A stretch of DNA of 64,000 nt from Promethearchaeota archaeon (lineage in GTDB: Archaea; Asgardarchaeota; Lokiarchaeia; Sigyniarchaeales; SOKP01): contig JAEOTR010000014.1 of assembly GCA_016839705.1 (NCBI GenBank), forward strand, positions 32,001 through 96,000. Direction: 5' to 3'. Shown one piece after another: positions 39,840 through 44,144 of the stretch; the stretch's first letter is position 1, and each line of letters starts with the position of its first letter. Both the position numbers and the translations under genes were made by a program. A model generated the notes under the pieces. That model ran no database searches and was not told the origin of the DNA. It was given only the letters and a program-made list of their open reading frames with translations.

Positions 39840-41339
39840 TCAATAATTAGGTACTCTCTTATTTTCTTCCAATCGTGTATTAATATGTTTTTTGCTATTA
39901 TTTTTCTTAGATCCCGCAATCCTTTGGAGTAGGGGTAACCCTGGTTTTACTTCTTCTAAAGGTTTTGATTCAATTAGATTGTTAGATATTAATTTTTCAT
40001 AAAGTTCTTTTCCCTTCATCGTTCTAATTAGTACAGTATTCCAGCCAGAAGGAGAGCCTATTGATCCGATTGAGATATCTGCAGATTCTGAAGTTAAGTC
40101 AAAACACATTTCACAATCTTCACGGCCTAGATGAGAAATTTCTTTGATGGGTATGTTTAATTCTTCACCACTATTCGTATACACGAAGAATTTACCTTTA
40201 TTAATATCCATTTTTTTAGCATTTTTAATATCTACCTTCAATTTCTCACAAATTTTTAAAAGAGATTCATATGAAAACGATTCCATACAAAATATTCCAA
40301 TCCGGTATTCAACATTATTCAAGGAAGGAAATCCTATATCATAGATTGTTGATTTTAAAAGAGCTTGAATCTGACAAGGAACACCCACCACAGCGATTTT
40401 TTTATTGTGGAGTTCACTTTGATTTAATATTTGCAGATTAGGATTATTAACATATTTAGTACCTGCCGTTGAAAAGATTTCTTCTTTACTTTTGAGTAAT
40501 ATTGGTTCAGGTCGCCATAAGGTATTACTCATTTTCGCTCCAATGGCAACATCTACTGCATTATTTTCTAAAAGGTAATGAAGGCAAGTGCTTGAAACAC
40601 CCCCATCTTGACAGATTTCTGATATTTCTTTTATTTTAGTACGAGCAGAATATGCTTCAAGAAAGAAGCCTACATTTTGATATTCTTTGATTTCAGAAGT
40701 GCTCTCTTGAGTCATATTCAAAACTCTCACGGGTAAGTATGTTCTAGGACATACAAAATAACACAGTCCACAGCGAATACACTTATCTTCATCAATTTTT
40801 CCGAAACCATTATAAATTTGAAGACAATTAACAGGGCATATTCCTGCACACAACCCGCAACCAGAACAGTTTTTTGTTTCAAAAATGATTTTAACTGGTT
40901 CATAAATAGGCTTTAATTGAGAAGTCTGCGTTTTATTTGGTTTTATTAAAAAATCCTTGAAGATGAGTTGTTCAGGATTATTCTCATATCCTTCAATCTT
41001 ATCATAAAGTTCTTCTGAGCTTACAAGATTTTCATTTTTTAGTAATTCTAAGAAGCTCAATGTTTTATTTAGTTCAATAGAATTCATTTCAGAAAATAGT
41101 TCGAGGGATTTTAAATTGCTCTCAGAATTTTGTTTTAAGAAGTTAAGAAGAGAATATTTTAATTTCTCTTCATCTAGCATTTTGATTAGTATAGTTTCAT
41201 ATTGGGATTCATCATAAATTCCCGCATCAAGTATATCTTGTTTTGCGTCAATTAATGCTCGAATTCTATATGAATCTAAGGCATCCGCTACATTTTTTAA
41301 ATAATCCCATGAAAAATTTTCTTCAATACTCATAATCAT
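39840..41339 (-). CDS. FrhB/FdhB-family F420-binding subunit with 2x[4Fe-4S] ferredoxin and an N-terminal extra domain
   Basis: CSGCGLCAGICP, CIRCGLCYFVCP, QDGG, AGTKY, GVPCQ, GIFCME, CEMC, ADISIGSIGSPSGW. Confidence 0.9.
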   Translation of the reverse strand: MIMSIEENFSWDYLKNVADALDSYRIRALIDAKQDILDAGIYDESQYETILIKMLDEEKLKYSLLNFLKQNSESNLKSLELFSEMNSIELNKTLSFLELLKNENLVSSEELYDKIEGYENNPEQLIFKDFLIKPNKTQTSQLKPIYEPVKIIFETKNCSGCGLCAGICPVNCLQIYNGFGKIDEDKCIRCGLCYFVCPRTYLPVRVLNMTQESTSEIKEYQNVGFFLEAYSARTKIKEISEICQDGGVSSTCLHYLLENNAVDVAIGAKMSNTLWRPEPILLKSKEEIFSTAGTKYVNNPNLQILNQSELHNKKIAVVGVPCQIQALLKSTIYDIGFPSLNNVEYRIGIFCMESFSYESLLKICEKLKVDIKNAKKMDINKGKFFVYTNSGEELNIPIKEISHLGREDCEMCFDLTSESADISIGSIGSPSGWNTVLIRTMKGKELYEKLISNNLIESKPLEEVKPGLPLLQRIAGSKKNNSKKHINTRLEENKRVPNY

Positions 41340-41367: not shown

Positions 41368-41438
41368 TCCGAAAACCCTTGCTATGGGTTAGTTCCTTCT
41401 CAACTATAATTTTTTTGAGAAGATCATTCTAATTCGGA
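41368..41438 (-). promoter_or_regulatory. Eukaryote-like SECIS element candidate (3' of mvhD)
   Basis: Minus strand: UUAG-AAUGA-U-CUUCUCAA-AAAAAUUAUAG-UUGAGAAG-GAA-CUAA. AUGA/GA core, 8-9 bp stem, A-rich apical loop; outer UCCGAA/UUCGGA pairing possible. Confidence 0.7.
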
Positions 41439-41860
41439 TTGTGTTTTGGTAGAGGAGGCAAGCGATAAATTTTATTGGTAATATCTGCTACAGAATTTAT
41501 AAATTTCTCAACTTCTGCTGCGGAACAAAAGTATTGTTGGACTCGATCTTCAGAAATACCTTCATGCTTTAACAATTTTTTCAGTGCAAGTATATGTTCG
41601 TAGGTATTCGTATTTCCATTTTCAAATTCACATTCACCTACTTTTCAAGATATAATCGCAACACCATCAGCACCGTTTAAGAAAGCTTCCATGATTAGAT
41701 GGATGCCAACACGTCCAGTGCATCTTACTCGGATGAGATGAAAATCTGTAGAGTATGATTTTCTTGTGACTCCTGTTAAATCTGCTACGGAATATCCTCA
41801 TTTATCGCAGCCAAAGGCAACAATTTTTCTTGATTCTTCATTTTTTACTTCAGACATCAT
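41429..41860 (-). CDS. mvhD: MvhD/VhuD hydrogenase Fe-S subunit, selenoprotein with 2 Sec (143 aa); not in ORF track
   Basis: KIVAFGCDKUGYSVADLTG...IRVRCTGRV...AFLNGADGVAIISUKVGECEFENGN...EDRVQQYFCSAAEVEKF. UGA at 41798-41800 and 41645-41647 occupy conserved MvhD Cys positions. Confidence 0.93.
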
Positions 41861-41878: not shown

Positions 41879-43876
41879 TTATTCTTCTATACTCTCAGGT
41901 ATTTTTTCTACAGTTTCTATTTCACTACATCCAATGCCCTTAAGTTCCTGCGTGAATTGAATATCTCTATAATACTTTAGGTCTATTGCTCTTGCTGGGC
42001 AAGAAGATATACATACACCACAGCCTTTACATTTTAAATCATCAACCTTAGCAATCTCGTTCTCATTAACTTTAATTGCTTCATAAAAGCATAGTTTTTC
42101 ACACCGATGGCAACCCATGCATAAATCTTCATTCACTTCAGCAATAATTAATTCTTGTTTAATGGTATCATGTGATAATAGAGTAGATGCTTTACTTGCT
42201 GCTGCTAACGCAGAGGATACGGAATATGGAATATTTTTTGGTCCTGCGGCACATCCCGCAATATAAATTCCTATGTCTTTTGTCTCTTGAGGGCTTAAGC
42301 ATCCATGAACTTCAGAAAGAAACCCACTTGGACCTCTACTTAATCCCATAACATTTATCATCTCTTCAGTTCCTTTTGAAGGATTCATCCCCGTTGATAA
42401 CACGACAAGATCAGCATTAATTTTTACAATTTCACCTGTTAACGATGAATACGCTCTGACCTTCAACTTATTTGTTTCTTTATCCTCTATAATTTCACCT
42501 ACTTTTCCCCTAATCATTCGTACCCCAGTCTCTCTTATTTTTCTATAGTATTCTTCGTTTCCTTTATCTGTCGTTCGAATATCAATATAAAACATAAATA
42601 CTTCCATATCAGGATACTCTTGTTTTAAGAGTTGTGCATTTTTAAGAGCAACATTACAACAGACAAAGGAGCAATATGGGTTAGCATTTATGTCTCTCGA
42701 ACCAACACACTGGATCATTACTATCGTTTTTGGTGATTCTCCAGTGGAGATTCGATAAATATGTCCGCCAGTTGGCCCTATAGGGCTTAGCATCCTTTCT
42801 AATTCAATCTGTGTTATTACATCAGGATAATAACCGTAGTTATATTCATTTGATTCCCAAATTGGATACTCATCCCATCCTGTCGCGACAATAGCTGCTC
42901 CGACCGTAATATCGATGAATTCATCCTCTTGTTCAAATTCAATGGCCTCAGCAGGACAAATTCGTTCGCAGTTTTTACAATCAATGCATACATTTCTATC
43001 CATAACAGCTAGTTTTGGAACAGCTTGGGGAAATGGTATATAAATTGCATTTCTTTCACCAATACCTCGATCAAATTCACTCGGTACTTTAATTGGGCAC
43101 TTAGTTGTACACAACCCACATCCAGTGCATTTTTTCTCGTTCACATATCGAGCATTTTTTCTAATCTTGACTTTATAATCTCCAGGGATTCCACTAAACT
43201 CTACAACATCGCTATAAGTATACAGATTTATATTTGGATGTTTCGATGCGTTTACCATTATTGGGGCGAGAACTCATATCCCACAATCATCAGTAGGATA
43301 AATTCGATCTAATTGTGCCATTTTTCCTCCAATTGTAGCTTCTTTTTCAACCAAATAGACAGGTATTCCCTGATTTGCTAAGTCTAGAGCAGCATTCATT
43401 CCAGCAATCCCTGCTCCAACTACTAAAACTGCCCTTTCTGCAGGAATTTCTTTTCGAGGAACATTTTCTAATTCTCTAGCTCTATTAATTCCTGCTTTTA
43501 CTAATCGTATAGCTTTCTCTGTAGCTTTTTTCTTATCATCTCTATGAACAAAAGAGCAATGTTCTCTTAAATTAACCATTTGGAAATAATATGGGCTAAT
43601 TCCCGCCTCAACTAAAACAGCTCTGTAGGTGGGTTCATGAATTTTTGGTGTACATGCCGCAACGACAACTCTGTTCAAATCTTGTTCCAAAATATCATTT
43701 TTTATTATATTTTGGCCAGGATCAGAGCAAGTAAATGCATTAACTCTGGAGATAATTACATTAGGAAGATGTTCGATAGCATCTCTGACTGCATCACAAT
43801 CAACAGAAGCTTTAATATTTACGCCTCACTCGCATACATAGACTCCTATTCTAACAATGGTCTGATTCTCAGACAA
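41879..43876 (-). CDS. hdrA: Heterodisulfide reductase subunit A, selenoprotein with 2 Sec (about 665 aa)
   Basis: One frame through UGA 43826-43828 (RIGVYVCEUGVNI) and UGA 43274-43276 (IYPTDDCGIUVLAP). Also CSDPGQ, AACTP, NLREHCS, GAGIAG, QCVGSRD..YCSFVCC and four ferredoxin motifs. TTG start after AAGGTG; alternative ATG at 43906. Confidence 0.95.
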
Positions 43877-44144
43877 ATAATACACCTTTTTGTAAAACTT
43901 CACCATTAATTTTTTGTTAATCTGAAATATTACATAAAATCTTATTGGATGATGAAATTATTGAAAGAATTTATTTTTTCTGATTAAGCTTCATAATAAT
44001 GATAATGATAATAAATTGTAATTTTAATAAATGATTTCGAACATTTTTTTTTCAAGAAGAGCTTTATAGTCAGTTGTTCTTAATTTAGATTAATTATTTA
44101 GTGCAATTTTTTATAGTACAAACAAGTTTAAGAAGTAGTGAATT

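Follow-up and report, generated by a model that had tools for sequence, protein, structure and literature searches.

A Lokiarchaeia-type SECIS element with a predicted three-way junction fold at the end of an hdrA-mvhD pair containing four in-frame UGA codons

The hdrA-mvhD locus and the element at its end

The window, i.e. the whole 64-kb stretch of DNA that was analysed, is part of a 3.36-Mb Asgard MAG with a G+C content of 31%. Its minus strand encodes HdrA, which carries Fer4 and FAD/pyridine-nucleotide oxidoreductase domains of the HdrA type (Pfam), followed by MvhD and an FrhB-like protein (Table 1). Two in-frame UGA codons are present in hdrA and two further ones in mvhD, and mvhD ends at the UAG codon 41431-41429 once both of its UGAs are read through. 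The hdrA genes of hdrA-vhuD pairs are described in the main text of an earlier study as never being terminated by UGA (Mariotti 2016, PMC4989117). Alignments with the paralogues of the same genome show that all four UGAs correspond to Cys in five Cys-type hdrA-mvhD pairs and to TGA in both other Sec-type pairs. In addition, the genome encodes a tRNA-Sec and a selD gene, which has a SECIS element of its own. The frhB-like gene starts 28 nt past the element described below and probably belongs to the same operon as hdrA and mvhD. Its product is extended by ~150 aa at the N-terminus and has an additional 2x[4Fe-4S] domain. The three genes form an HdrA-MvhD-FrhB module, and hdrBC are absent from the window.

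A first-pass annotation of this DNA had pointed to a eukaryote-like SECIS element at the mvhD stop, composed of AUGA, a stem and a loop with a run of adenines, to which a second hairpin and an outer helix might be added. All of these motifs are found in a 71-nt RNA (41438-41368, minus strand), whose parts are listed in 5' to 3' direction in Table 1; the second hairpin, P3, and the 3' strand of the outer helix, P1, are separated by UU. The unconstrained minimum-energy structure calculated by RNAfold (-18.7 kcal/mol, z = -2.88) contains P1, the main stem P2 and P3. The short C-stem below the core, which is too short for energy models, is missing from this fold. Instead, the fold contains the pairing AACCC/GGGUU, which competes with CUAA; its A-U pair shows no covariation, and the pairing UAG/CUA is therefore preferred. 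The fourth pair of the C-stem (U-A) is found in the host genome and a few others, and most orthologues possess UAG/CUA alone. Directly 3' of the element, an oligo-U tract is absent.

Table 1. Coordinates of the genes, UGA codons and structural parts of the element (parts of the element in 5' to 3' order)
Feature	Position	Strand	Remarks
hdrA	41879..43906	-	675 aa with TGA read as Sec; stop UAA
hdrA in-frame UGA (Sec) codons	43828-43826 and 43276-43274	-	ORF read with TGA=U
mvhD/vhuD (FlpD family)	41429..41860	-	143 aa; Pfam PF02662, E = 8e-37
mvhD in-frame UGA codons	41800-41798 and 41647-41645	-	ORF read with TGA=U
P1, 5' strand UCCGAA	41433..41438	-	within the last mvhD codons (..N-P-N); pairs with 41368-41373 in the minimum-energy fold
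C-stem, 5' strand UUAG	41429..41432	-	holds the mvhD stop UAG; partner CUAA at 41389-41392
Kink-turn bulge and 5' side of SECIS core, A + AUGA	41424..41428	-	AUGA itself 41427-41424
P2, 5' strand UCUUCUCAA	41415..41423	-	first position is the variable N.N, here U.G
Apical loop AAAAAUUAUAG	41404..41414	-	11 nt; starts AAAAA, ends UAG
P2, 3' strand UUGAGAAGG	41395..41403	-	minimum-energy fold and covariation
3' side of SECIS core, AA	41393..41394	-	AUGA_AA variant
C-stem, 3' strand CUAA	41389..41392	-	orthologue and divergent alignments
P3 hairpin CCC-AUAGCAA-GGG	41376..41388	-	loop G-C-A at 41382-41380
P1, 3' strand UUCGGA	41368..41373	-	minimum-energy fold and covariation
frhB-like gene	39840..41339	-	499 aa; Pfam FrhB_FdhB_N/C and Fer4

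The element carries the features of lokiSECIS elements

The lokiSECIS, as described in the main text of Mariotti 2016 (PMC4989117), consists of an AUGA motif, a stem of 9 positions, an 11-nt loop of the form AAAAA...AG and GA or AA on the 3' side, with one element per hdrA-vhuD pair. Each of the structural features is present here: AUGA lies immediately 5' of the main stem, which comprises 9 positions including the first U.G; the 11-nt loop is A-rich in its first five bases and ends with AG; and the stem is followed by AA. Furthermore, the adjacent gene contains in-frame UGAs at Cys positions, and the genome encodes Sec machinery, which bears out the proposed eukaryote-like SECIS at the mvhD stop, as one of the Loki type. 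According to the main texts on lokiSECIS and on the Asgard type I eSECIS-like class (Huang, Xiao & Zhang 2024, PMC11227280), elements of this kind share with the present one the core motif and the location directly behind vhuD/mvhD; they are likewise common to the hdrA-vhuD pair, partially overlap the coding sequence and have an AUGA_AA core in hdrA/frhD of Lokiarchaeia. Judging from its sequence, the element is a genuine and ordinary lokiSECIS, i.e. a member of the Asgard type I eSECIS-like class with the known AUGA_AA core variant.

Eukaryotic SECIS elements (Rfam SECIS_1, RF00031) resemble it in the AUGA core with tandem non-Watson-Crick pairs, the unpaired adenines of the apical loop, the action at a distance and the service of more than one UGA. 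However, the upper stem is shorter here, a kink-turn layout with a 3-nt bulge takes the place of the large internal loop, and the element is located at a stop codon and not deep in the 3' UTR. The eukaryotic AUGA...GA quartet with A.G as its second pair is also lacking, the 3' side being AA instead of GA. Euryarchaeal SECIS elements of Methanococcales/Methanopyrus vhuD have in common with the present element the gene context, a short additional stem and, on either side of the main stem, AUGA and GAC/AAC, as far as the main text of Mariotti 2016 (PMC4989117) describes them. Their defining GAA_A bulge between the lower stem and the short G+C-rich upper stem is missing here, however, and the main stem is uninterrupted.

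The core has the layout of a simple kink-turn

The core was compared among 45 orthologues and 95 divergent elements (alignments A1 and A2), all of which contain AUGA (ATGA) without exception. In the orthologues, the base that follows the 8 Watson-Crick pairs can be any of G, A, C and U, and the two adenines next to it are nearly invariant (A48) or invariant (A49). A variable base followed by a fixed AA means that the core reads AUGA_AA, i.e. G.A, A.A and N.N. The first-pass annotation had considered the core slightly non-canonical and left two readings open. Its G.A/A.A reading is upheld, as the published AUGA_AA variant and not as an anomaly; the alternative, GA next to a bulged U, is contradicted by the orthologues with their free base and fixed AA. 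The AUGA_AA variant is known for hdrA/frhD of Lokiarchaeia, and the main text of Huang 2024 (PMC11227280) relates it to kink-turns with an A.A pair.

On the bulged strand, the order of elements is stem-UAG, A-A-U and G-A, and on the other strand A-A is directly followed by CUA. Read in this way, the sequence has a simple kink-turn layout with a 3-nt bulge (A-A-U) followed by G.A, A.A and U.G, in which the A.A at the second position weakens the classical motif. Next to the kink, 93 of the 95 divergent elements have a G-C pair and the other 2 a compensatory A-U; the following C-stem pair is A-U in 52, U-A in 5 and G-C in 3 elements of this alignment. P3 branches off the non-bulged strand, 3-4 bp from the kink in the present element and 1 bp in the paralogues on contigs C15 and C5. 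Similar arrangements have been described for kink-turns with an A.A pair at 2b.2n and for the k-junction (Wang et al. 2014, PMC4005666); in common are a 3-nt bulge followed by G.A, A.A at the second position and a third helix that emanates from the side of the canonical helix. In contrast to the k-junction, the branch is 3-4 bp away from the kink in the fold predicted here, and the paralogues with 1 bp would resemble a k-junction more.

Overlap of the element with stop codons

The 95 divergent elements are located behind genes for MvhD, VhuU, SelD, PrxL and two families of small Sec proteins. Their alignment drew on 92 weaker matches of a covariance model of the whole junction, R1. All 25 genomes from the same family contained full-length matches to this model, 2-7 in each. 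The genes in front of the 95 elements use three different stop triplets, located between -1 and +59 nt when counted from AUGA. Translation of 35 of these genes ends with the UGA that is part of AUGA; other stops are found 3-59 nt upstream. In the small zinc-ribbon-like proteins, the stop is found 40-44 nt upstream and hence outside the element.

As had been noted from the sequence, the mvhD stop UAG is indeed part of the C-stem beneath the kink-turn. It had further been proposed that termination at mvhD transiently unfolds the element and thereby couples translation to Sec recoding. On this view, the stop would have been placed there by selection, and each termination event would reset or gate the SECIS. 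In favour of it, the element includes the stop in 75 of the 95 divergent elements and in almost all 46 orthologous loci, and given the footprint of a ribosome, termination at mvhD requires opening of P1 and the kink-turn. The positions of the stops are not fixed, however, either in distance or in triplet. Moreover, 44 of the 95 divergent elements contain the UAG triplet, but only 14 use it as an in-frame stop; the remaining 30 retain it as a non-stop, and the orthologues L039, L045 and L051 have kept UAG although their stop has moved. Retention of UAG where it does not terminate translation indicates that it is primarily one half of a structural stem, which is sometimes borrowed as a stop. Compact genes and the presence of UAG and UGA within the motif would suffice to explain the overlap, which was noted earlier: the main text of Mariotti 2016 (PMC4989117) already reports the overlap of lokiSECIS with coding sequence and argues for a minimal UGA-SECIS distance. 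Termination-coupled recoding would be interesting if true; it is improbable in our estimation, and the comparative sequence data do not support it. The melting of P1 and the kink-turn at the mvhD stop is better read as a side effect than as a regulatory device: the genes are tightly packed, and the UAG and UGA of the motif are themselves used as stops.

Comparative evidence for a three-way junction

In the main texts on lokiSECIS, the element is a hairpin whose basal part is given in general terms, as 'lower stem' and 'internal loop'. In the present element, this part appears to comprise a stem of 1-4 bp below the core, an outer helix that closes the structure and a side hairpin whose loop carries G-Y-R. 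Published models need the core only. It is thus conceivable that the published hairpin alone is functional and that P1 and P3 are local additions, for example an element for transcript stability or processing. The orthologous loci are not suited to decide this: all 71 nt are kept at the same position in 46 of them, but P1 is almost invariant, and the group is too uniform to be informative about the outer helix. More can be learned from the other two Sec-mvhD genes and selD of the host genome, which show the same architecture with different helices. Here, P1 reads CCGAAG/CUUCGG, UGUGUU/AACACA and CUCCAAA/UUUGGAG, and P3 reads CCAU/AUGG, AUGG/CCAU and UUCC/GGAA, respectively.

All 95 divergent elements fit the junction over its full length. 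In their alignment (A2), which like A3 was fitted to the model structure and favours the model, P1 is paired to 91.7%, each of the six P1 pairs shows 27-47 double changes, and at least 60 distinct P1 sequences keep the pairing; 94.5% of cells are paired in P2 and 95% in P3, with double changes at all 9 and all 4 pairs, respectively, and slid controls reach only 26-46%. The apical loop is 11 nt long in 86 of the 95 elements. The P3 loop is conserved as G-Y-R (G in 92, Y in 91 and R in 75 of 95) and is represented by G-C-A here.

Because the pair counts rest on model-fitted alignments, alignment-free tests were added. All three helices appear in the unconstrained minimum-energy fold of 67 of the 95 elements. 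When the core was held open, P1 with at least 4 bp and P3 with at least 3 bp formed together in 80 of 95 elements, compared to 189 of 950 with shuffled flanks; in about 15% of the elements, P1 and P3 are absent from single-sequence folds. The duplex energy was -8.4 kcal/mol with the element's own flanks and -5.0 kcal/mol with swapped flanks, the own flanks being better in 82 of 95 cases. A second model, R2, detected the junction with other helix sequences in the families f13 (3/3), f16 (5/5) and f19 (2/6); in f16, which has a G+C content of about 50%, P1 reads CUGCUGC/GCGGCAG. No junction was found by R2 in the 23 other Asgard families sampled, which may not use Sec and were searched with strict filters. 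Taken together, about 160 SECIS elements retain the junction and show numerous compensatory changes in it; they represent four Asgard families and no fewer than six families of selenoproteins.

Selection on the outer helix is also visible within the coding sequence. The Pro codon located in P1 is CCG in 40 of 41 orthologues, compared to 2 of 54 Pro codons of the operon, and the sole exception, GCG, is accompanied by a matching change on the 3' strand of P1. The fixation of CCG at a synonymous site of P1 argues for selection on the RNA inside the coding sequence.

The first-pass annotation had suggested a three-way junction as a possibility and had named folding and covariation across related loci as the way to examine it. 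This check has now been carried out: the structure is conserved in the 46 orthologous loci, P1 and P3 show compensatory changes beyond them, and related and distant elements alike retain P1, P2, P3 and the C-stem. The UCCGAA/UUCGGA helix and the second hairpin are hence regarded as real, given their conserved pairing, the double changes and the outcome of the alignment-free tests. A functional hairpin with merely local additions would fit the low information content of P1 among orthologues and the finding that a plain sequence alignment of 30 diverse elements (MAFFT and RNAalifold) recovered the main stem only. This failure can be explained by shifts of P1 and P3 by a few bases between elements, so that they cannot be aligned by sequence, which may also be why they are absent from earlier studies. 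Local additions would hardly recur with the core, as P1 and P3 do, downstream of selenoprotein genes from six or more unrelated families, across four Asgard families and in 60 or more versions of the P1 sequence. Nor would one expect a G-Y-R loop conserved as strongly as the core or a synonymous codon position fixed in a way that keeps P1; we therefore consider this reading very improbable. The main texts of Mariotti 2016, Huang 2024, Sun 2021 and a 2026 review do not mention a junction or second hairpin, which their figures or supplements may nevertheless draw, and a full-text literature search for SECIS together with 'three-way junction' in archaea retrieved nothing relevant. The junction refinement of the lokiSECIS class appears to be unpublished.

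A single element for four UGA codons

Covariance models give the element scores of 101 and 84 bits, with E values of about 1e-23 and 1e-18, which is well above what chance would produce. A scan of the whole 3.36-Mb genome with a strict pattern returned only six loci including the present one, and the present element was the sole real SECIS among the matches of the strict regular expression; other SECIS elements escape the strict pattern because most of them carry a mismatch or a G at the start of the loop. A second SECIS was not found in the 64-kb window by the covariance model, with filters switched off around the operon, the next best match reaching 14.8 bits. As the only SECIS of the window, the element would therefore serve four UGAs in two cistrons, lying upstream of it at distances of about 2.4 and 1.85 kb for hdrA and 373 and 220 nt for mvhD. 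The single SECIS of the hdrA-mvhD operon would thus direct the decoding of all four UGA codons as Sec. An Rfam search at E values up to 10 did not return any SECIS family, only chance matches to snoRNA, CRISPR and miRNA families; Loki elements likewise have no Rfam SECIS match according to the main text of Mariotti 2016 (PMC4989117).

In the host genome, each of the three Sec-type hdrA-mvhD pairs is followed by a SECIS element, and no such element was found by covariance model after the five Cys-type pairs. L7Ae is known to bind kink-turn motifs of the kind seen in the core. One could imagine that the element is not a SECIS at all and acts as a terminator or attenuator between the genes, or offers a kink-turn through which the frhB-like gene downstream is controlled in the manner of L7Ae. 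This idea could draw on the kink-turn motif and on the position between two genes, but is extremely improbable, as the host genome shows the element only behind genes with in-frame UGAs, regardless of the downstream gene, none was found by covariance model after the Cys-containing paralogues and no oligo-U directly follows it. From the comparative data, the identity of the element as SECIS and its association with UGA-containing genes are considered demonstrated, as are its predicted fold and the conservation of this fold. As a whole, the locus is very probably best explained by a Lokiarchaeia-type SECIS of the AUGA_AA class, which serves four UGAs and folds into a compact three-way junction.

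Possible recognition of the junction

To our knowledge, no archaeal SECIS-binding protein has been described. The kink-turn, the A-rich loop and the P3 loop might serve as docking sites for the Sec-specific elongation factor and/or an adaptor. An adaptor is proposed since no homologue of SBP2 was found in Asgard archaea, as stated in the main text of Mariotti 2016 (PMC4989117). It is tempting to speculate that all Loki-type SECIS elements are kink-turn three-way junctions, that the G-Y-R hairpin is the specificity determinant read by an archaeal SECIS-binding factor or by aSelB itself, and that the internal loop of eukaryotic SECIS elements is a remnant left after loss of this hairpin; this idea is tentative, and we would at present rather expect at least part of it to fail. 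A fold that is supported by covariation, with a kink-turn layout, a junction and a conserved G-Y-R loop, provides targets for mutagenesis, pull-downs and structural work, and it changes the picture of the intermediate form in the transition from archaeal to eukaryotic SECIS elements. It also yields a far more specific search model for the annotation of Asgard selenoproteins, which are split at UGA by standard gene callers.

Other SECIS junctions and small Sec proteins

Further SECIS junctions of the host genome are located at C15:10449-10527(-), C3 (L004:1356-1450:-), C5:4638-4716(-), C13:69898-69975(+), C73:87261-87339(+) and C70:36061-36145(-). The genes in front of these elements are the two other Sec-type hdrA-mvhD pairs, selD and genes for a small thioredoxin-like protein with a CWTU motif, a PrxL with a UU pair and VhuU, the stop of which is the UGA of AUGA. 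The paralogue element on C3 has a bulged main stem; it was missed by both covariance models and found by eye. A SECIS-like junction at C73:89116-89191(+) scores 35 bits. Its AUGA is without the AU, and a UGA-containing gene is not obvious in front of it; this could be a degenerated copy beside the PrxL gene.

Two families of small Sec proteins with junction SECIS elements were observed at loci of relatives, including L099, L122, L129, L145, L125, L134 and L160. The first comprises small hydrophobic or membrane proteins of about 60-100 aa, in which a GGGU or GGU motif precedes the junction SECIS. Members of the second are small zinc-ribbon-like proteins that end with ..RFK and carry the UGA near the start, their stop lying 40-44 nt before AUGA. 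Read-through of TGA in front of some mvhD SECIS elements (L138, L143 and L153) results in 8-11 'U' in about 205 aa; these reading frames probably walk into the preceding hdrA in another frame and do not encode multi-Sec proteins. Finally, the mvhD loci of L012, L013, L014 and L048, which are labelled as Thor-, Hermod-, Hod- and Odinarchaeota, are 81-87% identical to the present Lokiarchaeia-type locus, and the names under which these MAGs were deposited look inconsistent.
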